DNA from: Candidatus Poribacteria bacterium
Lineage (GTDB): Bacteria > Poribacteria > WGA-4E > PCPOR2b
Direction: 5' to 3'
Assembly (NCBI GenBank): GCA_965208675.1
Contig: OZ242351.1
Location: 1,536,001-1,600,000 of the forward strand
Length of the DNA stretch: 64,000 nucleotides
Positions 1,227-35,164 of the stretch are shown here, one piece after another. The position numbers and the translations under genes are program-made. The notes beneath the pieces are model-generated. The model was not told where the DNA came from, did no database searches, and saw only the letters and a program-made list of their open reading frames with translations. Positions within the stretch are counted from its first letter, which is position 1. Every line of letters begins with the position of its first letter.

Positions 1227-4200
1227 TCAATCTGCGAGCAGATATTGAACTTTAGCTTCCAGGTCATGCCCCCAGGCGTCTACGGAAATCTCTCCTGCTG
1301 AGTTAATTAGAACAAACCCAGTTCCCCATCCGATTGCAAATCGATCGAATGTTTCGCCCTTTGCGCCGACGACCTTTGTTGGGCGGTCTAAGCCGATCGA
1401 GTACGACAGCGACTGCTCCGTGATGTGCACTTTGACTTTGTCAACATCAGCCGTAGCGGGACAGATGGCGACGCAGACGAGTCCTTTTTCTCGATAGACC
1501 TCCTGCAAGATATTCAGGAGACGTATTTGTCGAATATGGTCGCGGTGATTCAAATTCCAAAAATGTAGGACAATCGTCTTTCCCTTGAACTCTCCGATGG
1601 ATGCGGGTGAACCGGACAACCACTTGGAAACCGCCAACTCCGGTGCCGGTTTGTTCACGAAAGATTTGAAGCGGTTTTCTGCGGACGCGGCGTATGACCG
1701 CTGCAACTGCTGCTGCGGAGTCGGCCCCAATCTCTCGTCATCCGTCGTCAGAGTAAAGACCAGATCACGTCGATCCACCGCGATATCCTTGAATGTTTTG
1801 CGGTACTTTTTATGATAGACACCCATTGACACGACCGGACCCTTTATGTTCGGTAGTTCAAAATCACCGTACACGTTAGTGTAAGCAACGGGGTATCGGT
1901 AGCTGGAGAAGGGCGTTTCTTCGCCGCCTACCATGACCCGCGCCTGTTCAATCGGTTTGCCTTCGGCGTCCACTACCTTCCCGGCGAGATATGCTATCGC
2001 CTTGACTAGTTCAAAGTCGTGCCGTCGGTTGGTTTTTAAAATCCTGACTTCAAGGTCTGGATACGCCGGATGGAAAATGAACAGCGCGGAAATAACCGCC
2101 ATAGAAAGTTCTTCCATTCGATAATTACCGTTTTCATCGGTGCGGCTTGACCAGTGTTGCCCCGCCTGACTGATGCTAAGTTGCACGCCGCTAACCGGCT
2201 CGCCAGAGTTATCAATGACACGCCCTTCAATAAAAAACTGCCCGCCGGCTGGGAACAGGACGAAATCCGCAATTTGTGTCATCTCCGCTGTGGCGGTGAA
2301 CTGATCGGTTTCAGCATTTCGATACCCGTCTCGTTGCACATAAATTTCGTACTTATCACCAACAATGAGCGAAATATTCTGGAACTGCCCATCGTCATCT
2401 GTCACATCCACAATGGTGTGAGCACCGATGCCTCGTTGATGGTCCCAGTGAATCAGATTGACGTTCGCCAACGGCATCGGTTTGCCTTCACCGTCTATTG
2501 CTCGTCCGGAGACTTCGATCCGCTGTTGCCGTTTCATCCGGATTTCAACCGGCATATCCGGCTGCACCTCAATCTCGACCGTTCCGCGCAATCCCAATTC
2601 GCTATGTACGGCTCTGAGGCCAAGATTACTTCCAACTCGTAGTCCGTCAACAGTGAACCTACCTAACTCATCTGATGTGCCATAGTTTTTAAGACGCATC
2701 TGATCGTTTGTAATTTTCGCGCCGGCCACCGGTTTACCGGTCTCGTCCACAAGCCGGCCGGTCAGATTAATCCCTTTCGAAAACTGAAAATCAACGGTCA
2801 CAGTTTCGCCTTCAACGACCTCCACACGTCTCTCAACCCGTCCGATGTCCAATCTCTCGGTCCAGCCTATATCTTGATAGCCTGCCGGTGTATTAGTGTG
2901 CACGACCGCCTCACCGGGCGCGGCATCAAATTTGTACGCACCAGTTTCATCTGTTATTATATGGTGAGACCCCAGTTGAGATCTGTGCGGACGGGCCGCA
3001 TCATTTAATCTGATAGTATGGCCGGCAAGCGGTTCATTTGTGTCCCGATCGGTCACCCGCCCGGTGATGAAGCCGCTCCGATTCAGGGCTAAATCCACAT
3101 TCGTAACGGTCTGTCCGCCAGTGACTGTAATGAACTCCTCGGGAAGGGCGGTCCACCCGTTTGGCCCCTGATCTAGATAAAGGCTGTATGTGCCGGGGGC
3201 GACATTGTTCAGGCGATATTTTCCCTTTCGAACAGGTGCCTGTCCCGCCTCAATGGTCGGATAGATGCCCTGAAGCAACACCATCGCGCTTTTGACCGGC
3301 CTCTCGGTGTCAGCATAAGTGATGCGCCCCTCAATCCTGCCCTCACGTGTCAGCCGGAAATTGAGCCTTTTTCCGCTGACCGGCACGCTGTGGCGAAACT
3401 CCTTTGCGTATCCTGATGCTTGGACATCAAGGCTTATTTTTGTACCTTGCTGCAATCCAGGGAGCACAAACTCCCCATTCGTGTCCGTCTTGACGGGTTT
3501 TGGCAAGGCATTTTGTGTCAATCTATCTCCGTGTTCCCCTTCGCCATGGAAAACGGATTGAATCAATACCTTAGCGTTCTTAATCGGCTCGCCCGCCTCA
3601 TTCATTACTTTGCCAGTGATGATTCTTGGGCCTTCAAGTTTAATCTCAACGTCTGCCGTACTTTGGATTGGAAATTCCTGCCACCAGATTGCATGATCGG
3701 GATGCGTAACAGCAAGCTGCAGGCGATTCAGTGTGTTCTTGGAGTTGAAATGCCTTGATTTGCGTTTTGAAGGTGAAACTTCAAAGCGAAAGACCCCATC
3801 CTTCCCGGTGCGGGTAAAATACTTACGGTCAGGGTATGTGAAATATACGGATTCGGCATCCCCTCCAACTGGATAGGACAGTATCACATATCGTAGTTCG
3901 GCATCCGCTACCGGCGCACCATCACTGTCAACAACCCGGCCGGAGAATATTAGTTTCTCTTTCTCACCCACCGCTGCTGCTGCACGGCGTTGCGGTTTGG
4001 CGTTCTTTGCACCGAGGTTCCCCGAATCTGACGCTAGTCCAATTGAATTGCGGCTTTGCGCCGTAGAACCGCGATTGGAAGCAGCCAACGGCTGCATTCC
4101 CATCGGGGTGGGTATGCCCGCAATTAACGGACGTGTTGAGTTGGGAGCGGGTGTAAGGAATGTGACTGGAATCGGGTGGCTCGTGTGAGATTGTAACAAC

Positions 4201-4967
4201 CCAATCTGGTTATTTGAGGACACATTCGGCGAATCGCTTCGTCCGCCAATCAGTCCAACAAAAACACACAATGCCGTAATCAGCGAAATTAGTGCTTTGC
4301 TCACCGTTGTGCTACCCCACGTGAACCCTAGGGTTGGAGATGGGATGTGGCGAATCTGCTCCATTAGCTGCATGAGGAATCCTCCTTTGAGTTTGCGGTT
4401 CTTTACGAATCTGCCGTAATGTTCAGACAACGTGCTGCCAAGCTGCAGACGCGCACGACGCAACTTGCTCTTGATAGTATTCACGGAGACACCGAGAAAT
4501 TCTGAAATCTCCTTCAGCGAATAATCACCTGCATAGAACATCGACACGACGAGTCGGCTTTCGTCAGAGAGCTCTGACATTGCCTGCTCAAGATCTACCT
4601 GCCAGTCCTGTGTGGGCACCGTGTGTTCAGGTTGAATCTGTAGTGAGTCGTCCACAGCATGCTCCAGCGCAATCTCGTGCCGACGTTTTTTCGTAATGCG
4701 CTCCAGCCAACGTTTGCATTCGTTGGACATGATTGTATACAGCCAGCTCCGGAAGAGATGCGGATGCCGCAGTTTTTGGAGATGGCGGAATGCCTTTAAA
4801 AAAACCTCTTGCGTAATGTCCTGCGAATCGGCTGCGTTCCGCACTTTCTGATAGGCGTAGGTGTAGACCATGTCCTGATACTTGTGTACGAGCGCACCGA
4901 AGGCGTCTCGATCTCCTGCGAGCGTTTGAGACACTAACTTTTCGTCGGCTGTATACATAATAAGCAT
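1227..4967 (-). CDS. ECF sigma-70 factor fused to TM helix, carboxypeptidase-regulatory-like repeats and C-terminal thioredoxin-like domain
   Basis: Region 2 (DSQDITQEVFLKAF, FRSWLYTIMSN), region 4 (YSLKEISEFLGVSVNTIKSKLRRAR), TM ALISLITALCVFVGLIGG, repeated G-R/K-V-x-D-x-x-G-x-P-V/I and TDxxGxF/Y motifs, C-terminal PAPELAVSKW...KGKTIVLHFW redoxin-like fold. Alternative start 4958. Confidence 0.9.
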   Translation of the reverse strand: MLIMYTADEKLVSQTLAGDRDAFGALVHKYQDMVYTYAYQKVRNAADSQDITQEVFLKAFRHLQKLRHPHLFRSWLYTIMSNECKRWLERITKKRRHEIALEHAVDDSLQIQPEHTVPTQDWQVDLEQAMSELSDESRLVVSMFYAGDYSLKEISEFLGVSVNTIKSKLRRARLQLGSTLSEHYGRFVKNRKLKGGFLMQLMEQIRHIPSPTLGFTWGSTTVSKALISLITALCVFVGLIGGRSDSPNVSSNNQIGLLQSHTSHPIPVTFLTPAPNSTRPLIAGIPTPMGMQPLAASNRGSTAQSRNSIGLASDSGNLGAKNAKPQRRAAAAVGEKEKLIFSGRVVDSDGAPVADAELRYVILSYPVGGDAESVYFTYPDRKYFTRTGKDGVFRFEVSPSKRKSRHFNSKNTLNRLQLAVTHPDHAIWWQEFPIQSTADVEIKLEGPRIITGKVMNEAGEPIKNAKVLIQSVFHGEGEHGDRLTQNALPKPVKTDTNGEFVLPGLQQGTKISLDVQASGYAKEFRHSVPVSGKRLNFRLTREGRIEGRITYADTERPVKSAMVLLQGIYPTIEAGQAPVRKGKYRLNNVAPGTYSLYLDQGPNGWTALPEEFITVTGGQTVTNVDLALNRSGFITGRVTDRDTNEPLAGHTIRLNDAARPHRSQLGSHHIITDETGAYKFDAAPGEAVVHTNTPAGYQDIGWTERLDIGRVERRVEVVEGETVTVDFQFSKGINLTGRLVDETGKPVAGAKITNDQMRLKNYGTSDELGRFTVDGLRVGSNLGLRAVHSELGLRGTVEIEVQPDMPVEIRMKRQQRIEVSGRAIDGEGKPMPLANVNLIHWDHQRGIGAHTIVDVTDDDGQFQNISLIVGDKYEIYVQRDGYRNAETDQFTATAEMTQIADFVLFPAGGQFFIEGRVIDNSGEPVSGVQLSISQAGQHWSSRTDENGNYRMEELSMAVISALFIFHPAYPDLEVRILKTNRRHDFELVKAIAYLAGKVVDAEGKPIEQARVMVGGEETPFSSYRYPVAYTNVYGDFELPNIKGPVVSMGVYHKKYRKTFKDIAVDRRDLVFTLTTDDERLGPTPQQQLQRSYAASAENRFKSFVNKPAPELAVSKWLSGSPASIGEFKGKTIVLHFWNLNHRDHIRQIRLLNILQEVYREKGLVCVAICPATADVDKVKVHITEQSLSYSIGLDRPTKVVGAKGETFDRFAIGWGTGFVLINSAGEISVDAWGHDLEAKVQYLLAD

Positions 4968-5008
4968 CTAATCCTAAAACGAAGCATGGAAGCCCTATTT
5001 GCATAACA

Positions 5009-5051
5009 TAGACACATCTAGTGTACCAGAGGTTGCACCGAGTGGAAAAAA
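5009..5051 (-). promoter_or_regulatory. putative ECF autoregulatory promoter TGCAAC-N18-GTCTA with upstream T-tract
   Basis: Same motif, spacing and T-tract upstream of all three sigma paralogs; AAC/GTC cores typical of ECF promoters. Confidence 0.7.
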
Positions 5052-5246
5052 TAATGATTCACGCCCCATCCCAATCAAAAAAATGAATGGTTGCTGAATT
5101 CAAGGAATAGCATCAAAGAGATGTCTCAAACGATTAAATGCCGCCTGAATGAGAATTTGAAACCTGCAATCGCGAAAGGGCTTTGGAACGCAGCGTGAAT
5201 GGGACAACTACGTCAAAGGTGGGGTTTATAGCGGACGACGATGAAA

Positions 5247-5538
5247 AGACATCTTTCCTAATTAACTCAATGTGGTTGACAAAACTGAAGCGACATCGGG
5301 CTTTGAAATTATTTTGGAAAGTTGTCAAATGTGTTTTCTGAACACGCCTGAAAAAACTATCTTCGATTTGACGAACGAAAATTCGCTCTGGGGCTTTGGC
5401 TTATGACTGCTGGTGCGGCGTTAAGGGCAACCACAAGGGTTGCCCCTACAGCGTATTAGCCCAATGTGAGGGTAGTCGTTTTATACCTGTCGCCCCGCTG
5501 GGGCTATCGGGCGGTGGAATTATTTTGGAAAGATGTCT
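5247..5538. mobile_element. MITE-like element with 12-bp terminal inverted repeats and internal REP-like hairpins
   Basis: AGACATCTTTCC (5247-5258) / GGAAAGATGTCT (5527-5538); extra direct copy of the right end at 5307-5329; hairpins GGGCAACC-acaa-GGGTTGCCC (5425-5445) and GCCCC-gct-GGGGC (5492-5504). Confidence 0.45.
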
Positions 5539-5888
5539 AAAGACAAACCAAATTTGCGATAACTAGACAACCGGCCGGTATTGGGTATGGCGATAACTTT
5601 CTCCGTGCTAAGATGGACTTCACCGGGAACGTTTATTTTGGACCGGCAGGCCGTAATTGGAGGGGTTATCCTGCGGCTAATATTGACGCGAGAAGTTTTC
5701 GACTTGGACGAAATGGAAAAATAAGGTGGGATTTTGACCGTTGAGGCGTTTACGTAAATTCAGGCCGCAAACAAGCCATTTGCAGAACCGCGGAGGTCAT
5801 AGATAGAGATTCACATTCGACCCAAACTACACTGTGGCAATTATGATAGATTAGCGAAGCGTATCAAAATTTCGCCGAGATCGACGAT

Positions 5889-7130
5889 TTACTTTGTCCG
5901 TGTTGTCTTTCCGGTCGTGCTGTCCTTTTCGATGATAGCTATGTGCGGCAGGCGCCACTCTATGCTTGCAGGGCCAACGTCGAACCATTCACCCGAAAGT
6001 CCCATCGAAACGAAATCTTCCTCGCCCCGGTCTTTATCGTGCGGTTCATGGGGCGCCCAGTTTGTGAATGTCACCGGCTCACTGTTTGCCCAAACCCATT
6101 CCCCTTCGTTCGCATAATCGGTCAGTCCAATCCAGCACCGATGCGGGCCAAAAGTTCTTGAAATCCAATCCTGCTCTGCTGCATCGTTGATTGCAACGAG
6201 ATACCCATATTCGGCGGCGGCTTGAGAGTTGGCTTCATCCCAACTCTCGCTACTAATTCGCTTGTACGCGTGCCCATTTGCCGGATTCACCACCCACGCT
6301 GACCCGCCGCCCTGCGGTGACGTTGATACTTCTGCAGAAACGTCGACTCGACCAGTGGGACCTTCAGGCCAATTCGGAAGTCTGTCGAGCGTGAAAGCCA
6401 AATCTTCTCTGTCTTCTCCTTTTCTTAGCAGGAAGGGATCTGCTGACGCCGAAAACCTGTGATAGTTCACCGTCATTGTGTAGATTGCCGATTCATCTAC
6501 GTAGTATTTAAAGTAGCCGTCAGCGTCTGTTTCACTCGACGAACTTGAGCTGCCGCTACCCGTCCCGTCGGGCGTACGATGGTTTACGCTGACATTTATC
6601 CTCACGCTGGAAAGCGGGGTGCCATTGAGAAACACAATGCGTCCCCGAATGTAATTCCGCAATTTCACTCTGACTTCGACATTCTCAACGTGCACGTCCG
6701 GCTTAATAGCGAACGCGATTCCCTGCCAAGGCGAATATTCGTGCCGGTACACGGTCAGTGCCGCAACCTTTACGGAAATGATTTCGCCGCTGGTCCCGGA
6801 CGAATGATAAAACTTGGTAGCCGGTGTTAGTCGGACTTTTGCCGGCGGGATGTTGCTCATCGAAAAACGTCCAATTTCGTCAGAGTGCGATTCTGAAAGT
6901 GTGATGAAGGTTCCTTCGACTGATTCAAGTGAAAACGGTAAAAGGGATAGCCCAAATCCTGCAACCGGATTGCCTTCTGAATCAACAACACGGCCGGACA
7001 GTGTAGAAGTACCGTCCAAAGCCAAGCCCTGCAACGATGCGGCGAATGAAAATACCATTATCCCAATAAGTAGCAACAGGTTTTCTCGCCTAAACGAAAT
7101 GCACAAACACCTGACATGTGACCAGTCCAT
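5889..7130 (-). CDS. secreted protein: signal peptide + carboxypeptidase-regulatory-like repeats + C-type lectin domain
   Basis: SD GAAGGAGG; hydrophobic N-terminus; LSGRVVDSEGNPV; lectin motifs NGHAYK, SWDEA, LVAINDAAEQDWI, WIGLTD, FTNWAPHEP; colinear with the C-terminal half of 9065..11248. Confidence 0.85.
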   Translation of the reverse strand: MDWSHVRCLCISFRRENLLLLIGIMVFSFAASLQGLALDGTSTLSGRVVDSEGNPVAGFGLSLLPFSLESVEGTFITLSESHSDEIGRFSMSNIPPAKVRLTPATKFYHSSGTSGEIISVKVAALTVYRHEYSPWQGIAFAIKPDVHVENVEVRVKLRNYIRGRIVFLNGTPLSSVRINVSVNHRTPDGTGSGSSSSSSETDADGYFKYYVDESAIYTMTVNYHRFSASADPFLLRKGEDREDLAFTLDRLPNWPEGPTGRVDVSAEVSTSPQGGGSAWVVNPANGHAYKRISSESWDEANSQAAAEYGYLVAINDAAEQDWISRTFGPHRCWIGLTDYANEGEWVWANSEPVTFTNWAPHEPHDKDRGEEDFVSMGLSGEWFDVGPASIEWRLPHIAIIEKDSTTGKTTRTK

Positions 7131-7202
7131 GGTAGATGCCTCCTTCGGAATGTTTTATGCGACCGAGGACGAGTCCCTCGGTGAATGGCCCAAATCGGTC
7201 AT

Positions 7203-7231
7203 TTGACGAAGCCAATTAGGGTTTGATTTCC
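7203..7231 (-). promoter_or_regulatory. possible ECF-type promoter GGAAAT-N18-GTCAA
   Basis: Same 18-nt spacing and similar cores to the motif upstream of the three sigma genes; single, degenerate instance. Confidence 0.35.
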
Positions 7232-7369
7232 TGACAACCCGGTCATATTACCGGGGAATGGCTACGCGAAGGCCTTGTCACTCACGTACCAAACGAGCTG
7301 TAAACGCTGTTACTAGCTGGATATACTCTTAGAAATCGTTTTGCGTTCAATGAGTCTAATTATCGGGTG

Positions 7370-8839
7370 TCAACGCCGGTTCTTCCCGGGCGATTCACGT
7401 CTTTTCGTTTCGGAGTCATTACGCCCTTCATAGGATTCATGTCGATTTTCATTGGGTTCGCTCCGGTCTATTTTACGCTCGTCATCATCATGAAGTATTT
7501 CAGGTTCATCCGGCAGATTTAGAATAGAAGTCGGGTCATCTGTATCTTCCAACGACTTCAGTGACCTCTCCAACTCATTCACCTCTACCCCGCCGGTCGA
7601 TTTCCAATCCTCAGCTTGCTTCATCTGGTTTTCCAATTCGAGTGGGACGATTGGCGCGGGGATCGGCTGTTCCAAATCCGCCGGAAATTCCGGCATATCT
7701 AGCGTCGGTCCGGCATGGCGCGTTGCTGCCGCAGGCGCGGAGTCGTCCGCTGCCAAGTCGGATTCGGAGGTCCAATGTGATGAGCGGGATACAGGTTTCG
7801 GTTCGGCAACGTTCGCAGGTTGCGAATCTGTTCCTGACGGAAGCACTACGTCGGACTCGGAACGGGCGATCTCCCGTCTATCATCATCAAATTTGCCGGC
7901 AAAATTCCCCCATAGCTTCGCCATTCCTCGCCTCGGTGCACCAGCGGGTTTGCCGTCCGGACCAATAAAGCCAATCTTCACATGTTCGGGCAGTTGCTCC
8001 GCGAAAGGGAAAGGCTGCAAATGTTTCATTATAGCATCCGTATCTTGAGCAGAAAGTCCCATAGCGGGCATAACTATATCTCCCATGTCTACACCGCCGT
8101 TACCGTTCAACTTAAAATAGGTGGTGTCCGCTCTCATCGGAAAACGCGTCCCATCTTTGGCTCTGGCAATCGTCACAAATTTGCCTTCATTCCATTGTTG
8201 TGCGAAAGTTGGGTCTTTTAATGCTTCTTTCACATAATAGTGCGTCTCCAAAAAATGCTGGATCCTAGTTTCTTCAAACTGTGCCGACGACGTGTCCGCT
8301 GGCAGCCCCATACGTTCTAGCACACTGTTTTTGTAATCGGCATCATGTCCGTACAGGGCTTGCTCGAAAAACTGCTGCTTTGAATGTAGCAGATTGAACC
8401 TGTACATGAGGAATGAATTGTATTCCGCACCGTTCACGATTAGCAGGCCTTTATCCAGCAACATCTGCAGGAATTCTGCACGCGGATAGGCTTGGTCGAC
8501 ATTTGCTAAGTCGATGCCGCTGAAATTAATCGTCTGCGACTCAACCCATGTGTCAAAATTAGTGTCATGCGCTTCCATAAGGGCTTCGACGGATTGCGGG
8601 CTTTGAAATGAGGTTGAATCGGAAATGTGGCGCATTCGAGTCAACTCCTCGTCCGCACCTTTGACGACGGTTGTCCACCAATAGTCGCGCAAATAGTTGC
8701 TTGTTACAATCTCTTCCGGTGAACCAACGTTCTGGCTAAATACAACATGCTGTCGATGCAAAAGTGCGGCGAAAACAGCCGCCGCAACAACTCCCAGACC
8801 AATCACTACAATCTTCCACTTTGACAAGGAAACCAACAT
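7370..8839 (-). CDS. hypothetical membrane-anchored protein with acidic low-complexity C-terminal tail
   Basis: 489-aa ORF, SD AAAGGAG, N-terminal TM IVVIGLGVVAAAVFAALL; no recognisable family motif. Confidence 0.75.
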   Translation of the reverse strand: MLVSLSKWKIVVIGLGVVAAAVFAALLHRQHVVFSQNVGSPEEIVTSNYLRDYWWTTVVKGADEELTRMRHISDSTSFQSPQSVEALMEAHDTNFDTWVESQTINFSGIDLANVDQAYPRAEFLQMLLDKGLLIVNGAEYNSFLMYRFNLLHSKQQFFEQALYGHDADYKNSVLERMGLPADTSSAQFEETRIQHFLETHYYVKEALKDPTFAQQWNEGKFVTIARAKDGTRFPMRADTTYFKLNGNGGVDMGDIVMPAMGLSAQDTDAIMKHLQPFPFAEQLPEHVKIGFIGPDGKPAGAPRRGMAKLWGNFAGKFDDDRREIARSESDVVLPSGTDSQPANVAEPKPVSRSSHWTSESDLAADDSAPAAATRHAGPTLDMPEFPADLEQPIPAPIVPLELENQMKQAEDWKSTGGVEVNELERSLKSLEDTDDPTSILNLPDEPEILHDDDERKIDRSEPNENRHESYEGRNDSETKRRESPGKNRR

Positions 8840-9064
8840 GATAGGTGCTCCTTTCTCCTAATACTTAATTGTTCGTGGAGATTCCAGTTGATTAAACCTA
8901 AACCCCCACGCTTCAGGCGTTTTTTTACTCATTCAAACTGGTTATTAGGATAGTTGTTCGTGAAAGTGTGTTTGGATTTACACATTGTAGCGCTGCGAAC
9001 ACTCAGTAATTCGATCGTTCATGTGTCAAAAGGCAATTTTTCACAGAATTGGGTAAATTTCGGG

Positions 9065-11248
9065 TTAGTTATCCTCAATGGGTGGTGAAGAAGCTAAGTT
9101 CTGCCTTTCGATGATAGCCATGCGGGTCATCCGCCACCGCGGGCTTTCGGGTCCAACATTAAACCAATTTCCATTCGGATTGATACCCATGAAGACGTAA
9201 TCTTCTTCACCGGGCGGCGACTCAGTCGGTTCATTGGGCGCCCAGTTCGTGTAAGTCGTCAGTTCGCCGCTGGACCATCGCCATTCCCCCTCCTTTTCGA
9301 AATCAGTTAGTCCAATCCAATAGGGCGTAGTTCCAAAAACTTTCACCAGCCAACTTTGCTCGGAGGCGTCGTTAATCGAAACCAAGTATGCATCCTCGGT
9401 AATGGCTTTCGCTTGAGCATCTTCCCAACTTTCACAATGAATGCTTCGATAGGCGTGTCCGTTTTCAGGATTCATCACCCAAGCTCCATCTCGGTCCGGG
9501 GGCGCGGCGCTATCCGGAGTTGGCTCAATGGGAATTGGCGGGCTGTCAAGCGTTATGACCAAATCATCATGCCGTTGACCGGTTTCGAGAGCAAACTGCT
9601 CCGACGTCGCCAATAGTCCTTGAAATTCAACCGCTACTGCGTAAAACCCAGGTTCATTCACATAGTGCACAAAGTAACCCGCTTCGTCTGTGCGTGGCAA
9701 TCCTCCGCTACTGCCCGTGCCTTCCTCATCAAGTGTACGCCATCGCACGCGAATCAGAACTTTCGCCTTGGCAAGCGGTGTGCCGTCAGCGAAAACAACC
9801 TGACCCCGAATGCGCATCCGCGGTTTAACTACAATTTCAAAATTTTCAAGGTGTGTCCCCGGCTCAATGGTAAATGTAATCCCACCGTGAGGGGGCGGTT
9901 GCTGGGAATCCGCATAAAAAATCATCGCGCCAGTATCAATGGACAAAACCTCCGCGTCTACAAAATTTTCTTGGTTGTAGCTATGCGGAGGCATGTCATC
10001 GCTTGTTACAGGATTGGGCTGTGCCATGAACTGGAGAGGCCCGGGTTTGATGCCAGAAATCGAAAACTGTCCCTCTTCGTCCGTGTCCGATTTGAACGTG
10101 TACGGCTGTGCGCCCCTCCTGAACCAATCATAACTGAACATTGGCATGATTTTGCCGTCAAATGACATCAGCGGTCCGACAGCTATGGGGAACCCCGCGA
10201 TTGGATTGCCGTCTGTGTCGACCACGCAGCCCGATAAGGCAATTTTATCGGACCCGCTCACCGATGCAGCAGTTGCGAATTGCGGACTTGGGGATTTGGC
10301 GCCCCCAGCCACGGCAGTGGTTTCTCGGTCAACTGGCTCGGAGTTCGGCTCCACTGAGGCGCGGTTGACGACCGCCAATGGATGCTTCCCCGACGAAGTA
10401 GGAATTCCCGTAATTGACGGGCGTGCGGAGAATGGCGGCGAAGCAAGCAACGCGACCGGGATCGGGCGGTAGGCGTCTGGCGGCGACAGTGCTAATTGAT
10501 TGCCTGTGGACGCTTTTGGTGAGATGTCTACTGCTCCAATAAGTCCGATCAAGATACACAGCGCCGTAATCAAAGAAAATAGGGTCTTGCTAACAGTTGC
10601 ACTGCTCCACGTGAACCCAACTGTTGGCGGTGGGATATGGCGTACCTGCTCCATAAGTTGCATGAGGAATCCTCCTTGGAGTTTGCGGCTTTTCATGAAT
10701 CGACCGTAGTGTTCAGACATCGAATCACCTAGTTGCTGCCGTGCTCGATGTAATTTGCCCCGTGCGGTGTTAACGGAGACGCCGAGGAATTCAGAGATTT
10801 CCTTCAGCGAACAGTCGCCCATATAGAACATCGACACCGCCACGCGATTGTCATCGGGAAGCGCGGAGATAGCCCGCTCTAAGTCCACCTGCCAACCTTC
10901 CGTTGCGGCCGTGTGCGCGGGTTCAATCTGTAACGCATCGTCCGTAACTTCGTCTAACGCAATTTCGCGCCGGCGTGTTTCCGTGACCCGCGCCAGCCAC
11001 CGGTTGCACTCGTTGGACATGATTGTATACAGCCAACTTCGGAACCGATGCGGGTGCCGCAGTTTGCAAAGATGCCGATACGCCCGGAGGAAAACCTCCT
11101 GCGTGATGTCCTGCGAGTCGGCTTCGTTCCTCACCTTTTGAAAGGCGTAGGTGTAGACCATGTCCTGATACTTATGCACGAGCACGCCGAAGGCGTCTCG
11201 ATCCCCCGCGAGCGTTTGAAACACTAAGTTTTCGTCGGGTGGATTCAT
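9065..11248 (-). CDS. ECF sigma-70 factor fused to TM helix, carboxypeptidase-regulatory-like repeats and C-type lectin domain
   Basis: Sigma regions 2/4 highly similar to 1227..4967; TM TLFSLITALCILIGLIGAV; lectin motifs WIGLTD, YTNWAPNEP. Start set at ATG 11248 (GAGG SD, aligns with paralogs); ORF track start 11281. Confidence 0.9.
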   Translation of the reverse strand: MNPPDENLVFQTLAGDRDAFGVLVHKYQDMVYTYAFQKVRNEADSQDITQEVFLRAYRHLCKLRHPHRFRSWLYTIMSNECNRWLARVTETRRREIALDEVTDDALQIEPAHTAATEGWQVDLERAISALPDDNRVAVSMFYMGDCSLKEISEFLGVSVNTARGKLHRARQQLGDSMSEHYGRFMKSRKLQGGFLMQLMEQVRHIPPPTVGFTWSSATVSKTLFSLITALCILIGLIGAVDISPKASTGNQLALSPPDAYRPIPVALLASPPFSARPSITGIPTSSGKHPLAVVNRASVEPNSEPVDRETTAVAGGAKSPSPQFATAASVSGSDKIALSGCVVDTDGNPIAGFPIAVGPLMSFDGKIMPMFSYDWFRRGAQPYTFKSDTDEEGQFSISGIKPGPLQFMAQPNPVTSDDMPPHSYNQENFVDAEVLSIDTGAMIFYADSQQPPPHGGITFTIEPGTHLENFEIVVKPRMRIRGQVVFADGTPLAKAKVLIRVRWRTLDEEGTGSSGGLPRTDEAGYFVHYVNEPGFYAVAVEFQGLLATSEQFALETGQRHDDLVITLDSPPIPIEPTPDSAAPPDRDGAWVMNPENGHAYRSIHCESWEDAQAKAITEDAYLVSINDASEQSWLVKVFGTTPYWIGLTDFEKEGEWRWSSGELTTYTNWAPNEPTESPPGEEDYVFMGINPNGNWFNVGPESPRWRMTRMAIIERQNLASSPPIEDN

Positions 11249-11311
11249 ACCACACACCTCAACCGAAATGATACACCACAACCCCGCAATAACCCAGACA
11301 AAACTACTTAT

Positions 11312-11355
11312 TAGACCCGCTGCGCGGATAAAAAGTTATGTCTTAGCGAAAAAAA
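11312..11355 (-). promoter_or_regulatory. putative ECF autoregulatory promoter CATAAC-N18-GTCTA with upstream T-tract
   Basis: Conserved with 5009-5051 and 15720-15763. Confidence 0.7.
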
Positions 11356-11567
11356 TTCGGGTGTGGCTGCATTCCTGATGAAGCAACGAATTACAATTCC
11401 TCATCGTGCAAAAGCGTAAGTATTAAAGAATAAGCAACAGTTTAAACACCTGGCTGTTGTATCTGGTTAGGGAGGGAATAAATGGTTAGCGAGAGTCCGT
11501 GTTATAGTCACTGCAACTAAAAATTACACATCACCTTGAATCCGATTGACAACGGGTGCCAACTCTC

Positions 11568-11837
11568 CTTATCAGGCTTAAAAATACCCACAATCTTAAT
11601 GAGGGTACTAGAAACAGCACTCGACGTAACCTACGACCTCCCCTAACCCCTCCTTAGTAAGGAGGGGAATGATTATTGTAATGAACTGCCAAGGCGTTCT
11701 CACTGTAGGAGAGGCATCTAAAACTATCGCGCTCCCTATTCGGTCGGTTGATTCTCGACAATCGGGAGAAGGATTTCCCGCCCACAGCGTGGCTCCGTGC
11801 GACACTCTGGACTTATGGGTAATAGTGCGCTTATCAG
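11568..11837 (-). mobile_element. MITE-like element, copy 1 (~250 bp, flanked by CTTATCAG direct repeats)
   Basis: Reverse complement aligns end to end with 44240..44510; degenerate TIR GCTTAAAAATACCCACA / TATGGGTAATAGTGCG; CTTATCAG at 11568-11575 and 11830-11837. Confidence 0.75.
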
Positions 11838-11976
11838 GGGGGCTGAATGTGTGTAAATATGAATGGAATTGACTATAATCTTCGGCGTGACAGATGGGTT
11901 CATGCATTGGGTAAATTATACTCAACCACAACAGGAAACTCGTTCCCTGTTGTGGTTGAGGTCATAGAAGTTCGGA

Positions 11977-14900
11977 TCAATCCGCAAGCAGCGTTTGAAT
12001 CTGAATTTCCAGATCGTCCGCCCAAGCGCGCCCGGCGATCTCTCCCGCCGAATTAATTAGAACGAATGGAGGCCCCCCTCCGATAGCGTATCGATCGAAG
12101 GTTTCGCCTTTCGCGCCAGCGACCGCTGTTGAGCGGTCTAAGCCGACTGAATACGACAGCGACTGTTCCGCGATGTGCCGTTTGATTTCCTCGACCTCTG
12201 TTGAGGCGGGGCAGATAGCGGCGCAGGTGAGCCCTTTTTCACCAAACACCTCCTGCAAAAGATTCAATAGCCGTACCCATTGGACACGGTCGTCGACGTA
12301 GCTCAAATCCCAGAAACACAGGACAATCGTCTTTCCTTCCAAATCCGCGATAGAGACCGGTGGACCAGACAACCACTCCGCAACCGCCAACTCGGGCGCA
12401 GGTTGGTTCATCAAGGATTTTAACCGTTCTTCGGCAGATTCGACGTATGACCGGCGAGCTTTCCGCTGTGCTTGTTGCTCCGCGGTCGGCTGCGGTCTCG
12501 GCTCGGGTGGTGTCAAGGTCAAAACAAGATCGCGCTGATTCACCGCGATATCTTCAAAAATCTTGTAGTCACGATCTTTGCCGACATAAATCGAAACAGT
12601 TGAATCTTTGATGTGTTTGAGTTCAAATTCGCCCTGCCAGTCGGTATCGACGGCAGGGAGTATATGGCCGGATGAGAGGTCTTCTTGCGGATCTACGAAC
12701 ACTGTTGCGCCTTCAATCGGTTTGCCGTCAGCGTTTACAACTTTACCAGCTAGGTATCCGTTCGCTTTGACTAACACCAAGTCGTGACGCTGATTGGTCT
12801 TTAACATCCTAAATGTATGGAATGCGTACTCAGGATGCTCAACATTCAAATCGATAATGAAGTTCATGAGAAGGTTTTTCAACTCATAATAACCATTCTC
12901 ATTGGTGCGCGCATCCCAGTGTTGTGATTGATGGTGTGTGTTTACGTGGGCGCCGTTGACCGGTTGACCGGAGGTATCCGTGACGCGGCCCTGAATGTAA
13001 AACTGACCTGCAACTGGCGCCAGTGTAAAATCTGCAATCTGGTCCATCTCTAGCGTAGCGGTGAACATCTCGGTTTCGGCGTTCCAATATCCTTCAGCGC
13101 TTGCAGACATAACGTACTGGTCGCCGACAATGAGCGCAATCTCCTGGAAACGTCCATCACCGTCTGTCAGAGCGACTGTTGTACTCCGTCCTATGTTTCG
13201 TTGGCTATCCCAGCGCATCAAAGTTATGTTCACCGATGGAATAGGTTCACCCTTACCGTTGATCACTCTTCCGGCGACCTTAACCTGATGGTACTCTCTC
13301 ACTTGAATCTCAACTGACGCGCCCTGCAGAACTTCAACCTCCGCCGTTCCACGCAATCCCAATCCGTTATGCTCCGCTCTGAGGACGAGATTTTGTCCGA
13401 TTCGCAATCCCCGTACAGTAAATTCTCCCTGTGCGTCCGACGTTCCGTATTCCTTAAACAATTTTCGCACATCGGAAATGTCGAGAATCTTCGCACCACT
13501 GATCGGTTCGCCCGTTGCCGTCAACACTCGACCAATTAAGTCCAACCCTTTCGAGAACTGAAAACCAACAGTGACAGTTTCGGCTTCAATAACATCCACA
13601 TATTTCTTGATCTGTCCGATATCCAGATAGCCCTCCGGTGCGCTGGTGTAGACCATTGCCCGGCCGGGAGCGGCGCGGAAGCGATAGGCACCCGTTTCAT
13701 CTGTGTTCGTCCCGTGAACCGATGCTTGGGATTGCGGCCGAGCGGCGTCGTGAAAGCTGATATGGTGGTTTGCGATGGGATCGCCTGTGTCTCGGTCGGT
13801 TACCCGCCCGGTGATATACCCACCCTGTACCAATGTTAGGTCTGTCCAGACGGTTAGCCCCTCAACGACCTTAAGGAGTTCTTTGGCTACTGCTGTCCAC
13901 CCGTCAGGTCCCTCATGAAGAAAGAGGTTGTACGTACCGGGAGGAATATTTTTCAGGAGGTAATGCCCGTTTAGATCAGTAATTGTTCGCGCCCAACCTT
14001 CGGTAGGATGGATACCCTCAACCATGACGGTAGCGTTTTTGACCGGCTCACCGGTACCTGAGAAGCTGAGGTTTCCCTCCACCCTGCCTTCGCGCTTGAG
14101 TCGAAACTCCAGCCGCTCTGTGCTGACCAACACACGTCCAAGTCGTTCCTTTGCGTATCCAGGGCCTTTAGCATAGAATACAATTGCACCGCCTTGCGGC
14201 AGTCCGCGGAGAACGAATTGTCCATTTGCATCAGTCTTGGCGGGCTGGATGGGGATAACGTCAATCGTCAATATTTTCCCGATATCGCTTGAAATTGGGT
14301 CACCATCGAACAACATCCCAATTTGCGCCTCCGCGTTTTCAATCGGTTCGCCCGCTTCGTTCATAATGGTGCCCGTTATACTCCCCGGAATTCCCAGTTG
14401 AATCTCAACATCAGAGGTGCCCTCGGGTAGGAGATTTTGCCAGCCGATAGCGTGTTTGGGGTGCATGGCGATGATGTCTACGCGATCCCATTTCTCGAGT
14501 TTTGGACGAAGACACTCAAAATGGAACGTCCCATCCGCGCCCGTGCGGGTGACAGACTTGGACAGATCGCGCTTTATTGAGTAAAAGACTTCGGCATCCG
14601 CTACCGCCGCGCCGCCGCTGTCAACGACCCGACCGGAGTAGACAAGTTTTTCGCCCGCGTTTCCCGCTGCAGTTGCCGCGAGTCGCGGTACGGAATTCTT
14701 CCCACCGCGGTTCGACGAAACTGACTCTTTGTCAATTGATTGGCTGCTTTGCCGTGTGGGTGCGCGGTTGGCGGCAGCCAGCGGGTGCTTTCCCGATGGG
14801 GTTGGAATTCCTGAAACCGAGGAATTCGCTGCGTATTGACCCGGTGTGTAAAACGACACCTCAATTGGCCATCGGCTCGTATCTGACTGCGGCCGCCAAA

Positions 14901-15654
14901 TCTGGTTTCTTGACAACTCTGTTGATGTGTGGATTCGTCCACCAATCAATCCAATTAAGACGCACAATGCTGTTATCAGCGAAAACAGAGTTTTGCTAAT
15001 CGTTGTGCTGCTCCAAGTGAAAGTCATGGCTGGAGTTGGGATGCGGCGAATTTGCTCCGTTAACTGCATGAGAAACCCTCCTTTGAGTGTGTGGCTCTTC
15101 AAGTATCTGCCGTATCGTTCAGACATAGCGCTGCCCAGTTGCTGGCGCGCCCGGTACAACTTCCCCTTTACGGTGTTCGCGGAGACACCGAGAAATTCCG
15201 AGATTTCTTTCAGCGAGCATTCGCCCATATAAAACATCGACACCGCCACCCGATTATCATCGGAGAGCACGGAGATTGCCTGTTCAAGGTCTACCTCCCA
15301 ACCCGCTGTGGGGACGGTGTGCGCGGGTTCATCTTGTAGAGCATCGTCTGCAGCGTCCTCCAGCGCAATTTCACGATGGCGTTTTTTCGACACCTGCGTC
15401 AGCCAGCGGTTACACTCGTTCGCCATGATTGTATAAAGCCAACTTCGAAACCGGTGCGGATGCCGCAGTTGATAGAGATGACGGTATGCCCGCAGAAAAA
15501 CCTCTTGGGAGATGTCCTGCGAATCGGATTCGTTTCTCACCTTTTGGAAAGCGTAGGTATAGACCATGCCCTGATACTTTCGCACGAGCATGCCGAAGGC
15601 GTCTCGATCGCCCGCCAGAGTTTGAGACACCAATATTTCGTCGGATGAATACAT
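11977..15654 (-). CDS. ECF sigma-70 factor fused to TM helix, carboxypeptidase-regulatory-like repeats and C-terminal thioredoxin-like domain
   Basis: Full-length paralog of 1227..4967 with the same architecture. ATG 15654 (MYSSDE); ORF track start 15663. Confidence 0.9.
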   Translation of the reverse strand: MYSSDEILVSQTLAGDRDAFGMLVRKYQGMVYTYAFQKVRNESDSQDISQEVFLRAYRHLYQLRHPHRFRSWLYTIMANECNRWLTQVSKKRHREIALEDAADDALQDEPAHTVPTAGWEVDLEQAISVLSDDNRVAVSMFYMGECSLKEISEFLGVSANTVKGKLYRARQQLGSAMSERYGRYLKSHTLKGGFLMQLTEQIRRIPTPAMTFTWSSTTISKTLFSLITALCVLIGLIGGRIHTSTELSRNQIWRPQSDTSRWPIEVSFYTPGQYAANSSVSGIPTPSGKHPLAAANRAPTRQSSQSIDKESVSSNRGGKNSVPRLAATAAGNAGEKLVYSGRVVDSGGAAVADAEVFYSIKRDLSKSVTRTGADGTFHFECLRPKLEKWDRVDIIAMHPKHAIGWQNLLPEGTSDVEIQLGIPGSITGTIMNEAGEPIENAEAQIGMLFDGDPISSDIGKILTIDVIPIQPAKTDANGQFVLRGLPQGGAIVFYAKGPGYAKERLGRVLVSTERLEFRLKREGRVEGNLSFSGTGEPVKNATVMVEGIHPTEGWARTITDLNGHYLLKNIPPGTYNLFLHEGPDGWTAVAKELLKVVEGLTVWTDLTLVQGGYITGRVTDRDTGDPIANHHISFHDAARPQSQASVHGTNTDETGAYRFRAAPGRAMVYTSAPEGYLDIGQIKKYVDVIEAETVTVGFQFSKGLDLIGRVLTATGEPISGAKILDISDVRKLFKEYGTSDAQGEFTVRGLRIGQNLVLRAEHNGLGLRGTAEVEVLQGASVEIQVREYHQVKVAGRVINGKGEPIPSVNITLMRWDSQRNIGRSTTVALTDGDGRFQEIALIVGDQYVMSASAEGYWNAETEMFTATLEMDQIADFTLAPVAGQFYIQGRVTDTSGQPVNGAHVNTHHQSQHWDARTNENGYYELKNLLMNFIIDLNVEHPEYAFHTFRMLKTNQRHDLVLVKANGYLAGKVVNADGKPIEGATVFVDPQEDLSSGHILPAVDTDWQGEFELKHIKDSTVSIYVGKDRDYKIFEDIAVNQRDLVLTLTPPEPRPQPTAEQQAQRKARRSYVESAEERLKSLMNQPAPELAVAEWLSGPPVSIADLEGKTIVLCFWDLSYVDDRVQWVRLLNLLQEVFGEKGLTCAAICPASTEVEEIKRHIAEQSLSYSVGLDRSTAVAGAKGETFDRYAIGGGPPFVLINSAGEIAGRAWADDLEIQIQTLLAD

Positions 15655-15719
15655 AACACCCACCTAACCAAAATTGAGAAAAAACCAACGCCGCAACGAT
15701 AATGGGCGCGACTATTATC

Positions 15720-15763
15720 TAGACACACTTTGTGGATTGGAGGTTATGCTGGGTAGAAAAAAA
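15720..15763 (-). promoter_or_regulatory. putative ECF autoregulatory promoter CATAAC-N18-GTCTA with upstream T-tract
   Basis: Conserved with the other two sigma paralogs. Confidence 0.7.
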
Positions 15764-16080: not shown

Positions 16081-16917
16081 TTACGCTGGAAGCTGAACCC
16101 AAGCGGTGACATGCGGGGGCAGGATGAGAGGACGTTTCGACGCAACAACTTCCGCCCTAAGCCGCTCGGCAAGCGTGTCCAGATCGACCTCTTCAGCGGT
16201 CGCAATCCCGTATGCTTCCAGGAGCGGGATTAGGCTGCGAAAACTGTTCGCTATGAATTGGTAACCCGCCCACGAGGCTGGACCGCCCATCGGTGCCCAA
16301 TACTGCAAAGTGGGTTCAGGCAAACCGGCATCAACGAAAGTGCCGAATAGGTCAAGACCCATTCCAATATTCGCCCCTGAACGCCGAAACACCTCTATCC
16401 CCCACTCGGCTAACTGGTTCAGCACGGGCGTATTCGAGCGGGCAGTTGCCTTGTAAATCGAGAGCTCAGCCTCCTGAAAAGCGACGATGCCTCCCGGGCG
16501 CACACGTGCCGCGAGTTGCTTCAAAGTGTCTACAGGGTCAGCCAGGTACATCAGGACCAAGCGTCCAATAAGGGCGTCGAAATCGCTCGGCAAGTCCAGA
16601 GTTTGGGCATCCCCCGCCACGAATTCGATGTTGGTGTAGCCCGCCTCCTGTGCGCGTGACCTGGCAGTTTCAAGAATCTCCGCGTTCATGTCCACGCCGA
16701 CGACTTTTCCTTCACTGCCAACCAACTCGGCGGCGGCGAACGCTACATCTCCGGCACCGCTCCCGATATCAAGCACTTTCATGCCTGTAAAAATGCCCGC
16801 ATCCCTGAGAAGACGCCGCGTTATGTCTTCAGACATTCCTGACTGCTGAATCAAGCGTTCCGTCTCCTCTTTGCTGCGCCCCATGGTATACGTCATCTCT
16901 CTATTTGTGTTGCTCAT
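16081..16917 (-). CDS. class I SAM-dependent methyltransferase
   Basis: VLDIGSGAGD motif I, VVGVD, FDALIGRLVL, VRPGG; SD AAAGGAGG. Confidence 0.88.
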   Translation of the reverse strand: MSNTNREMTYTMGRSKEETERLIQQSGMSEDITRRLLRDAGIFTGMKVLDIGSGAGDVAFAAAELVGSEGKVVGVDMNAEILETARSRAQEAGYTNIEFVAGDAQTLDLPSDFDALIGRLVLMYLADPVDTLKQLAARVRPGGIVAFQEAELSIYKATARSNTPVLNQLAEWGIEVFRRSGANIGMGLDLFGTFVDAGLPEPTLQYWAPMGGPASWAGYQFIANSFRSLIPLLEAYGIATAEEVDLDTLAERLRAEVVASKRPLILPPHVTAWVQLPA

Positions 16918-16975: not shown

Positions 16976-18190
16976 TTACGGTTCAATCAACTTATAGAAC
17001 AGTACTTCGCCATCGACGATGCGTTTTATGACGATGCTTTTCGATGTGTGCCGGTTCTCATCATAGCCAGAAATGAATGTGGCCCCGCTATAATTCTCCG
17101 TGGCTGCAATCTGGTCGCGGATCATCGACGGTGTCAGGTCATCTGCGCGGCGCATCGCCAGCACGACGAGTCTAAGAGCATCATATCCGCCTGCCGCGCC
17201 TCCATCGGGCGTTTCATCAAACATCGCAGTGTACGCAGCCACGAATTGATAGGCATCTTCACCCAAATCACTCGGTTCCGCCTCGGCGGAAAAGCCGCTG
17301 CTATAAAAACTCCCGTCAGCAGCCGCTCCGGCTGTGGCAATCAACGCGGTGTTGTCCCAGCTATCGCCGCCCAAGAAAGTTGCCGTTATACCGAACTCCT
17401 CTTTTGCTTGCCGAACTGCGAGCGGGACTTCAGGGATGAAGCCGGTACTAAAAACCACGTCCGGTGACGCTTCGGCAATTACGGTTAGTTGCGCGGTGAA
17501 ATCGGAAGTTCCCGCCGAATAAAATTCATCAGCCGCAATCACGCCGCCCTGAGCGGTAAAGTTGTCAATGAAGGTTTGCGACAATCCCTCCGAATAAACA
17601 TCTTCCCTGTGCGTCAGGATGGCGGCGGTGTTCGCCGCTAAATCTTGCAGGGCAAACTGAGCCATCACCTTTCCTTGGAAGTCGTCCGTGAAAGCCGCCA
17701 TGAACACAAAATCGCCCGCAGCAGTAACCGCCGGATTGGTCGCGGACGTAGCCATCATCGGTATCGAGTTGCGCTGCGCAATTTCCCCGACGATCACGGC
17801 GTAGGTCGATCGGTTTGGGCCGACAATTGCAGAAACGCCCTCTTCGAAAATCAGTTCTTCCGCAAGTGCTGCAACATATTCGGCGTCGTTTATGTCCTCG
17901 CTAATCAGGCGCTGTGTCGGTATGCCGCGAGGGACGAGTTGAATTGGTGTGCCCCGCACGCCGCCCGACTCGTTAAGTTGCAACGTTGCTAATTCTGCAC
18001 CGTATCGGCTGTTATTTCGGTTAGGCGAGGTGTACAAGAAGCCAATTTTAATCGCAGATTCGCCGTCCTCTGGGGGCAAAGGCGTAAGCAATTCTTTGAA
18101 CTGCTCGCACCCTGCAAACAGGGTGCTCATTAAGATTAACGGAATCAAAAGCCGACTAATGACTCTGGATCCAGTAGGTCGATCGGTCAT
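16976..18190 (-). CDS. branched-chain amino acid-type (LivJ/LivK-like) ABC substrate-binding lipoprotein
   Basis: Lipobox LFAGC; IKIG, SAIVGP, SATNPAVT, FTDDFQG, DFTAQL, LGGDSWD, GYDA. Confidence 0.88.
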   Translation of the reverse strand: MTDRPTGSRVISRLLIPLILMSTLFAGCEQFKELLTPLPPEDGESAIKIGFLYTSPNRNNSRYGAELATLQLNESGGVRGTPIQLVPRGIPTQRLISEDINDAEYVAALAEELIFEEGVSAIVGPNRSTYAVIVGEIAQRNSIPMMATSATNPAVTAAGDFVFMAAFTDDFQGKVMAQFALQDLAANTAAILTHREDVYSEGLSQTFIDNFTAQGGVIAADEFYSAGTSDFTAQLTVIAEASPDVVFSTGFIPEVPLAVRQAKEEFGITATFLGGDSWDNTALIATAGAAADGSFYSSGFSAEAEPSDLGEDAYQFVAAYTAMFDETPDGGAAGGYDALRLVVLAMRRADDLTPSMIRDQIAATENYSGATFISGYDENRHTSKSIVIKRIVDGEVLFYKLIEP

Positions 18191-18207
18191 TGAAGTCCTC
18201 CTTGCCG

Positions 18208-19510: not shown

Positions 19511-20344
19511 TTATCTCAAAACAACGTTAATCCGCAAATCAGCGGATTGGCTTACGAAATCCGACGTAACTTCCACGCCCAAATCGGGAAAAGGTGTAAT
19601 CCATTTTCCTTTCGTGAAGCTAGTGTAGCGCCCTTCAACTTCAAGCCAACAGTCGTCCCACATTTTCTTCTCCACACCGACGCCACTCGTCCATGCTGTG
19701 GAATAAAAATCCTTGGCAGCTCTACCGGATTCATAGCCGCCAATGCCGCAAGGCTCCGGATTGAAACACCCGTTGTAGTAGGCATCAAGCCGCGACTTGG
19801 CGAGGCGGACGCCTGCAATTACGTAAACGCCAGCTTTCCACGACCGCAGTGTTCCGGGACTAGCACCTAGCTTTAACGCCAGCCCGTAGCTATTGATCCT
19901 TTGAAACGTCCATTGCTCGGACCAACTCTCCCCAAGTTGGTTTGGGGCTTCAGATGTTCCCTCTTCCTCGATAGTTCCGTAAACGCTGCCGCCGTGGTAC
20001 AGGTAGTCAAACTCGCCGCTGAAGAAAAAAACGTCCTTACCGAATGGCATACGGTAGCCGATCTGGTAACCAAGTCCGTTAATGCCACCATCCGTGTTTG
20101 ATTCTGCACGATTTACCTTACCCTTTTGAGTCGACACATTCCGCGGATGTGTATTGTCGACAGTCTTGTTGTAATGGGCATCAATAAATTCCCCTGCTGA
20201 TATAAAACCGCCATATGGACCTGCGTGCGGATGTGTAAACCCTAAGCACGAAATTAACATGAAGCAGCAGCAAGTTCCAGTCAAAATGTTATGGCTCGAA
20301 AGGACGCAATTTCGCAAATCTGTTTTGTTGAACCCTTTAATCAT
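19511..20344 (-). CDS. putative outer-membrane beta-barrel protein
   Basis: Alternating amphipathic strands GYQIGYRM, FSGEFDY, YGLALKLG, VYVIAGV, GVGVEKK, LEVEGRY; N-terminal hydrophobic segment. Confidence 0.6.
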   Translation of the reverse strand: MIKGFNKTDLRNCVLSSHNILTGTCCCFMLISCLGFTHPHAGPYGGFISAGEFIDAHYNKTVDNTHPRNVSTQKGKVNRAESNTDGGINGLGYQIGYRMPFGKDVFFFSGEFDYLYHGGSVYGTIEEEGTSEAPNQLGESWSEQWTFQRINSYGLALKLGASPGTLRSWKAGVYVIAGVRLAKSRLDAYYNGCFNPEPCGIGGYESGRAAKDFYSTAWTSGVGVEKKMWDDCWLEVEGRYTSFTKGKWITPFPDLGVEVTSDFVSQSADLRINVVLR

Positions 20345-29161: not shown

Positions 29162-29232
29162 GAGTATTCACTTTAGCGCGCGGATTTGCGTTAGGCAATC
29201 CGTGCCAATCTTGAGATTCGAGCGTTCCGGTA

Positions 29233-35053: not shown

Positions 35054-35164
35054 AAAACTTCGCAAAGAACTCTGTCAAATCCTATTTTTGCCGGGGAGTT
35101 TTCCCGACAGAGAAAAACTGCGCTCCTCATTTGGCTAATAATGAATGTGCTGAATTTACGCGTG

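Follow-up and report, generated by a model that had tools for sequence, protein, structure and literature searches.

Can a single bacterial gene supply both a sigma factor tethered to the membrane and a second form of the same membrane protein that lacks the sigma part? This question is raised by an array of genes in the window that we analysed, namely the whole 64,000-nucleotide stretch (positions 1,536,001 to 1,600,000, forward strand) of contig OZ242351.1 from a Candidatus (Ca.) Poribacteria bacterium (assembly GCA_965208675.1). Three long, neighbouring open reading frames (ORFs) on the minus strand, designated genes A (1227..4958), B (9065..11248) and C (11977..15654), are predicted from their sequences to encode an extracytoplasmic function (ECF) sigma factor, one membrane helix, a linker, a stalk of beta-sandwich repeats and a tip domain, and each possesses its own ECF-type promoter motif; two further genes, D and E, sit between A and B. 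Directly behind the sigma part, each of the three genes contains a Shine-Dalgarno (SD) sequence and an in-frame ATG, which strongly imply that ribosomes also start at this site and thereby produce a membrane-anchored ectodomain without sigma. In the reading that we favour, with a probability of roughly one in two, each gene would act as an autoregulated one-component tethered-sigma unit that has two products and releases its sigma factor by proteolysis.

The longest ORFs extend slightly further upstream (1227..4967, 1246 aa for A; 9065..11281, 738 aa for B; 11977..15663, 1228 aa for C). Because the N-termini are conserved, the likely starts are at 4958, 11248 and 15654, respectively. The first 260 aa are 70–72% identical among the three proteins, in agreement with the shared N-terminal part of co-oriented genes described in the initial annotation, which was made from the letters and ORFs of the window. 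Sigma70_r2 (PF04542) and Sigma70_r4_2 (PF08281) each match above the Pfam cut-off in A, B and C, TIGR02937 scores 81–91 bits against a cut-off of 42.9, and the combination of sigma2 and sigma4 with no sigma3 is that of group 4 (ECF) sigma factors. Alignments of the sigma part to AlgU, SigW and RpoE run over its whole length (E values down to 5e-25); sigma2–sigma4 is intact, and the truncated domain that would have undermined the initial annotation was not seen. Behind sigma4, hydropathy analysis revealed one hydrophobic segment per protein (aa 222–251; Kyte-Doolittle 19-mer values of 2.2–2.5, next best 1.3 or less), where a transmembrane (TM) helix had been expected at approximately aa 222–240. 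The predicted TM helices lie at 4248..4304 in A (2.29), 10529..10585 in B (2.48) and 14932..14988 in C (2.16), all on the minus strand, and the low-confidence AlphaFold model of B also contains a helix at residues 216–237. Because this full-length model is poor (predicted local distance difference test score, 53), a fold search with it merely echoed ECF and pilin-like beta-sandwich folds. Proline and serine together make up 24–29% of the linkers.

The embedded SD (AAAGGAGG) and in-frame ATG of A (Met199 of the ORF) are located at 4371..4388, those of B (Met207) at 10661..10678 and those of C (Met199) at 15067..15084, all on the minus strand. Computed against the 16S tail of the host genome (G000), the internal SDs directly behind sigma4 have energies of -11.2 to -12.3 kcal/mol, and the SDs at the sigma starts are weaker (-4.0, -9.4 and -8.1 kcal/mol). 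Among 38 subfamily members, obtained from 25 fetched regions and the window, 34 have an internal SD of -8 kcal/mol or lower. The host genome yielded 52 sigma-like matches, 29 of them with long extensions; 26 of these long ECFs contain an internal SD–ATG, compared with 8 of 200 control ORFs given the same treatment. When 23 fusions of other Poribacteria were examined, many of them members of one tandem array, the SD–ATG was present in 15. In two Planctomycetia genomes, which are GC-rich and to which the same anti-SD was applied, just 2 of 30 long ECFs have it. The SD occurs in all three reading frames (12/11/3) at 6–11 nt from the ATG, as at genuine starts. With the encoded peptides held fixed, the choice among synonymous codons is biased towards the SD (Fisher p=1.7e-4 across 14 paralog clusters, misses included), whereas a control of 51 genes gave p 0.99. 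No other fourfold column of the 40 compared is as strongly conserved as the third codon position of Gly195 (GGA in 33 of 35; 24% in the genome), and the Gly196 codon is GGC in none of the 38 members (36% in the genome). The junction segment is homologous in most TM-bearing families, yet compared with sister families the restart of this subfamily is displaced downstream by approximately 16 residues; this shift within a homologous junction suggests that the restart has been re-created, not merely inherited. In two relatives (L039 and L051), sigma-less genes start at the restart Met.

The promoter motif of A, which consists of AACC, 17 nt and GTCTA behind a T-tract, is located at 5009..5038, and those of B and C at 11312..11341 and 15720..15749 (all minus strand). 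Ahead of 31 of the 38 members, we found a T-tract followed by AACC/T, 17–18 nt and GTCTA, that is, the AAC-type -35 and GTC-type -10 elements of ECF promoters. Thus, both the shared promoter and the internal restart that the initial annotation had pointed out are present in A, B and C. We infer that these sigma factors recognize the motif, and autoregulation of the three genes is likely. A core scan of the host genome gave 16 matches upstream of ORFs, including A, B, C and a sister ECF at 888509.

The cargoes behind the linker are of two types, as previously described. A, with approximately eight carboxypeptidase-regulatory-like repeats, and C, which has the same architecture and is 55% identical to A, contain 7 and 8 CarboxypepD_reg stretches, respectively, and an AhpC-TSA match below cut-off. 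Their terminal domains (1230..1658 in A and 11980..12408 in C, minus strand) have the thioredoxin fold of ResA/TlpA (profile E 1.3e-11; Foldseek E 1.9e-9). Unlike in ResA/TlpA, the active-site cysteines are absent: CxxC was found in none of the 29 copies of this domain, and the old active-site loop is highly variable. The redox sensor proposed for these genes is therefore withdrawn, at least as regards dithiol chemistry, and because the former active-site loop varies freely and CxxC is missing, the domain is more likely to be a binding surface than a redox switch.

In B, two repeats are followed by a C-type lectin-like domain (9107..9484, minus strand), and CarboxypepD_reg and Lectin_C both match B and D in Pfam. 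The domain of B belongs to the C-type fold (Lectin_C, 43.9 bits against 22.6) and resembles macrophage mannose receptor domains. However, the canonical EPN/QPD and WND motifs are replaced by EPT and WFN, and one cysteine is present in place of the conserved disulfides, which makes calcium-dependent sugar binding uncertain. A glycan sensor, as suggested earlier, is thus compatible with the fold but not with a canonical motif, and this cargo mostly occurs without sigma. The sigma-less paralog reported in the array is real: gene D (5889..7130, minus strand) encodes a hydrophobic, signal-peptide-like N-terminus of its own, two repeats and a C-type lectin-like domain, and is 39% identical to the cargo of B. 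Two other sigma-less repeat-plus-lectin paralogs, of 501 and 502 aa and with near-identical N-termini, are encoded in the host genome (G000:C1:2590406-2591911 and 4143314-4144822); the latter adjoins another ECF array. A lectin-type ortholog of 640 aa in G003 (L032:5640-7562) lacks the beginning of its lectin domain through an in-frame deletion.

Among the 38 members, 24 carry the thioredoxin fold, 6 the lectin, 7 repeats only and 1 PurC. We built a quick tree from 37 N-terminal cassettes, leaving out one frameshifted member. In it, the cassettes group by genus, with one change each for three genera, whereas the lectin label takes three changes, at least two of which are forced by strong branches, although lectin cargoes are 66–70% identical between genera g1 and g11. 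Because the cassettes group by genus and the lectin label and cargo do not, their histories differ, and exchange or gene conversion is, on this tree, real. The idea of interchangeable modules therefore holds in kind but not in breadth, since the repertoire of the subfamily is small, with merely two tip domains in 38 members.

According to the favoured reading, the full-length form would hold sigma at the membrane in the manner of IutY of Pseudomonas putida, a 374-aa sigma/anti-sigma hybrid from which sigma is freed by Prc and RseP (PMC5411451). A change in the ectodomain would lead site-1 and site-2 (RseP-type) proteases to free sigma, which would then transcribe its own gene. The host genome has genes for site-2 (M50) and S41 proteases. 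The topology is a prediction, the release by intramembrane proteolysis is inferred by analogy with IutY, and the architecture together with this precedent supports the membrane-tethered one-component ECFs postulated at the outset. The internal SD–ATG would yield the same membrane-anchored ectodomain without sigma, and this form may serve as the bulk surface or periplasmic binding protein. It may also buffer the system as a decoy for ligand or protease, possibly as a weak anti-sigma factor, and thereby set the feedback threshold. The tip would bind a ligand (protein, peptide or glycan) with no dithiol redox chemistry. If the restart is true, each fusion would continue to supply an anti-sigma-like membrane protein as a product of its own, and genes captured by the cassette would not fall silent. 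A broader and more tentative proposal, which we consider possible but short of probable, is that the two-in-one design is lineage-wide: a sigma-tethered receptor and a sigma-less decoy or anti-sigma twin would be made in a fixed ratio from a single reading frame, the embedded ribosome-binding site would have been re-created by selection at various positions and in various frames, and a cassette homogenized among paralogs would capture exported proteins without silencing them. This would account for the approximately 29 such genes, equipped with eukaryote-like binding domains, to which a single genome has expanded its set.

Several observations weigh against this reading. Taken alone, the single-site synonymous p-values of A, B and C are 0.08–0.25, and the conservation of other fourfold columns comes close to that of Gly195 (0.43 and 0.58 bits versus 0.37). 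The relatives that enter the restart counts are not independent, and 4 of the 38 members have lost the SD, yet their frames stay open. The restart product would have only approximately 25 cytoplasmic residues ahead of the helix. The helix behind sigma4 resembles helix IV of anti-sigma factors by eye, but the similarity was not significant: the junction profile beat all 100 shuffles for one of seven zinc-finger anti-sigma factors of the host genome, and no anti-sigma match was obtained in the PDB at E 10. A predicted complex of sigma with the N-terminus of the restart product scored 0.01, which carries no weight either way. Although A, B and C are the best three genome-wide matrix matches in the host genome, the matrix was derived from their own family; the core motif is not enriched across that genome (272 matches versus 332–339 in shuffles), and the matrix and core scans gave no convincing regulon target past A, B, C and the one sister ECF. 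Finally, the seven members with repeats only end without a tip domain.

Comparison with known systems indicates where the array differs from them. IutY likewise combines a cytosolic ECF sigma, one TM helix and an extracytoplasmic domain within a single chain. However, its periplasmic domain is of the FecR type and it has a partner TonB receptor, whereas A, B and C have a repeat stalk with a thioredoxin-fold or C-type lectin tip, no adjacent receptor gene and the internal restart. No FecR domain was matched in A, B and C, no TonB receptor among the scanned neighbours, and, as the initial annotation had stated, no anti-sigma family in the 6 and 18 neighbouring ORFs covered by two scans. ECF57 of Planctomycetes also has long TM-containing C-terminal extensions with carboxypeptidase-regulatory-like domains and a proposed release from the membrane (PMC7826278). 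Clusters with sigma2, sigma4 and CarboxypepD_reg in the Atlas are mostly from Planctomycetota, one with 2579 members (scores of 0.81–0.83, to be taken as leads only). Membership of ECF57 was nevertheless dismissed on the basis of the tree, the cysteines and the helix count. A quick tree built from 161 sigma domains places 30 planctomycete long ECFs, taken as ECF57-like from motifs rather than group hidden Markov models, in a clade of their own (Shimodaira-Hasegawa-like approximate likelihood ratio test support, 100), whereas the subfamily of A, B and C falls inside a Poribacteria clade (96). ECF57 has a fully conserved cysteine pair in sigma2 and sigma4; here, the sigma2 cysteine is invariant in 36 sequences at a position different from that of the planctomycete CRR motif, and the sigma4 cysteine is absent in A and in two more of the 10 sequences shown. 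ECF57 has approximately two TM helices, in contrast to the one hydrophobic segment seen by hydropathy in A, B and C, and the conserved promoter of the subfamily and the rarity of the embedded SD–ATG in planctomycete fusions set the two groups further apart.

ECF48, ECF52 and ECF53 of Actinobacteria are sigma–TM fusions that keep a zinc finger after sigma, and ECF52 subgroups possess carbohydrate-binding tips (NPCBM and ricin-type lectin), with SCO4117 being self-induced (PMC7826278). Sigma–TM–lectin fusions thus have a precedent. Unlike these groups, the present subfamily shows no His/Cys zinc-finger motif between sigma and the TM helix (junction columns 186–225 of 38 sequences), and its lectin fold is C-type. 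The closest parallel to the restart is provided by ArcB/ArcB-C and the rpn genes of Escherichia coli, in which a conserved SD and start codon at a domain boundary give a second product (10.1101/520783). ArcB-C is a soluble C-terminal domain, whereas the restart product here is predicted to comprise a membrane anchor and ectodomain; the putative restart also recurs across a whole paralog expansion. The general principle is therefore not new, as had already been conceded, because IutY and ECF48/52/53/57 are known TM-extended sigma fusions and sigma with repeats is common in Planctomycetota. The claim of an undescribed system is overstated for the architecture. For the embedded restart it stands in so far as no description was found: literature searches on internal initiation with sigma/anti-sigma factors showed nothing on this system among the papers listed. 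Among those listed for Ca. Poribacteria there was no ECF study; as regards the architecture, sigma–repeat–redoxin proteins may already be described in Jogler 2012 and Wiegand 2020 or their supplements. The distinctive feature is the conserved, repositioned putative restart over a Poribacteria-wide expansion. TM-extended ECFs are numerous and almost untested, and extension-bearing ECFs in general are barely characterized (PMC8103513); a conserved internal restart would offer a concrete answer to how they are silenced and how their unrelated extensions come about.

Another reading, which we consider unlikely, is that the genes are expression cassettes, not sensors: promoter, sigma, SD and ATG would form a portable positive-feedback switch for the fused exported protein, and sigma would be freed without a specific signal, for example when signal peptidase has cut the protein and the remnant is cleared, so that the surface protein is switched on or off. 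Among 120 listed of 593 homologues of the B cargo, 79 have no sigma junction, whereas 37 are fused to sigma and 4 begin close to the restart. The ten sigma-less homologues of ~420–430 aa that we inspected begin with signal-peptide-like N-termini. In G005 (L045:4052-5581), an almost complete purC continues in frame from a 701-bp duplicate of the promoter–sigma–junction unit (95% identity), and the restart ATG comes within two codons of the native purC start. The internal SD that outdoes the SD at the sigma start, the lack of further promoter targets and the varied cargoes of other long ECFs in the host genome (WD40, PD40, LRR, sortilin-like, M16, Reg_prop or CarboxypepD among the 16 scanned of the other 26, 5 of the 16 having no match) point in the same direction. 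However, G005 is 15% contaminated and carries a second, ordinary purC, no conserved signal-peptidase site was seen by eye, the junction, helix and linker are conserved, and both cargoes are stably maintained over two families, as illustrated by the lectin identity between g1 and g11.

It is rather doubtful that the genes are plain fusions of the ECF57 or IutY kind with an unused SD–ATG, which would be a fossil of a sigma/anti-sigma operon junction or a by-product of Lys, Glu and Gly codons. How such a junction arises can be seen from the ECF and zinc-finger anti-sigma orthologues of Tumebacillus lipolyticus and T. avium (L092 and L104; ~4530–4560): the two genes overlap out of frame in L092, whereas in L104 they are fused in frame (LKGG..M) with the ribosome-binding site retained, although this fusion may be a homopolymer error. 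By analogy with this pair, the restart probably originated from an overlapping sigma/anti-sigma junction that fell in frame. KGG and KEE peptides readily give SD-like strings (chance of 14–52% per site), and the SD was lost in 4 of 38 members and in 8 of the 23 other fusions. Nevertheless, the SD occurs in three frames and in at least five peptide contexts, three genes use rare AGG-AGG Arg codons for it (p ~0.01), the restart has moved inside a homologous segment and the combined synonymous test favours the SD; such a pattern would hardly arise unless selection acted on the RNA.

Fortuitous capture with birth-and-death turnover, in which duplicated sigma cassettes land on unrelated genes and the extensions have no shared regulatory role, seems improbable to us. 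Pinto and da Fonseca described sigma duplication with unrelated extensions in such a model for Planctomycetes (PMC7671368). Truncated, frameshifted and purC-fused members and the range of 1–6 copies per genome are in line with this model, but the duplicated unit spans the junction, helix and linker beyond sigma2 and sigma4, and 30 of the 38 members have one of two complete, conserved cargoes. In addition, the array order is maintained as C-B-E-D-A (five genes) in G002 and C-B-D-A (four genes) in G003, a recurrence that also rules out an assembly artefact as the origin of the array. Pausing or a programmed frameshift at the internal SD, which would end translation after sigma4 and give free sigma without proteolysis, is very improbable: SD-stimulated frameshifts are known in prfB and dnaX and a +1-frame stop lies at most 4 codons from the junction in 22 of the 38 members, but this stop is 32 codons off in 15, the -1 stops are scattered over 5–106 codons, and what every context has in common is an ATG spaced as for initiation.

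Of the 81 genomes from the phylum that were scanned, 17 contain the subfamily. All of these belong to two families, in which 11 of 12 and 5 of 6 genomes other than the host have it; none was found in 53 genomes of a third family. In a GTDB genome scan, the best 80 of at least 580 candidates included 22 loci at 60–92% identity, all from Ca. Poribacteria, and the remainder showed 38% or less. Within the genomes scanned, the predicted subfamily is thus found only in Ca. Poribacteria. A plasmid search revealed no full-length relative, and 61 Planctomycetia genomes gave no match at 1e-24, a threshold that was too strict. The C-type lectin, WD40 and LRR tips of these and other long ECFs point to a large surface-sensing repertoire in Ca. 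Poribacteria.

Other fusions were also observed. The host genome contains a tandem array of five PD40-type long ECF fusions (G000:C1:4143000-4161400; L187) and another of at least six long ECF fusions of mixed type (G000:C1:2755000-2780000), and a sigma-less member at 2765314-2767527 begins near the restart of its family. A tandem array of at least 14 long ECF–TM fusions of a sister family is present in G028 (C1:3228000-3288000; L170–L172), most of them with the SD–ATG in a KEETM or KEEPM context. In G026 (L038 and L039), fusions of family f3 alternate with signal-peptide proteins that, judged by eye, have TolB-type propeller-like N-termini, and with an insertion sequence-like ORF. Soluble sigma fusions without a TM helix were found in L087 and L089 (Planctomycetota) and L137 (Latescibacterota), the first two with a moderate SD–ATG ahead of an enzyme-like C-terminal part.

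Gene E (7370..8839, minus strand; 489 aa) has an N-terminal hydrophobic helix, no Pfam or NCBIfam match and no usable match in the Atlas search. Its full-length homologues occur only within the host genus, and there not always inside the array; E is probably a passenger of the array. A segment of 70–80 residues (aa 75–155) with weak matches across Poribacteria suggests a small lineage-specific domain. Between D and A, positions 5247-5538 contain a pair of 22-nt inverted repeats 248 nt apart and short direct repeats. Downstream of A lies an alpha/beta hydrolase-like gene (1-857; GHSxGG motif, by eye) with a weak core promoter match at ~851-880. Upstream of the array are a methyltransferase gene (16081-16917), a Peripla_BP_6 tandem pair (16976-19428) and an outer-membrane beta-barrel gene (19511-20344). 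The window further contains a two-component pair (27686-30801), the riboflavin biosynthesis genes ribBA, a lumazine-binding gene and ribD (33806-37193), and two long plus-strand ORFs of 2279 and 916 aa in lower-GC sequence (51565-61177).

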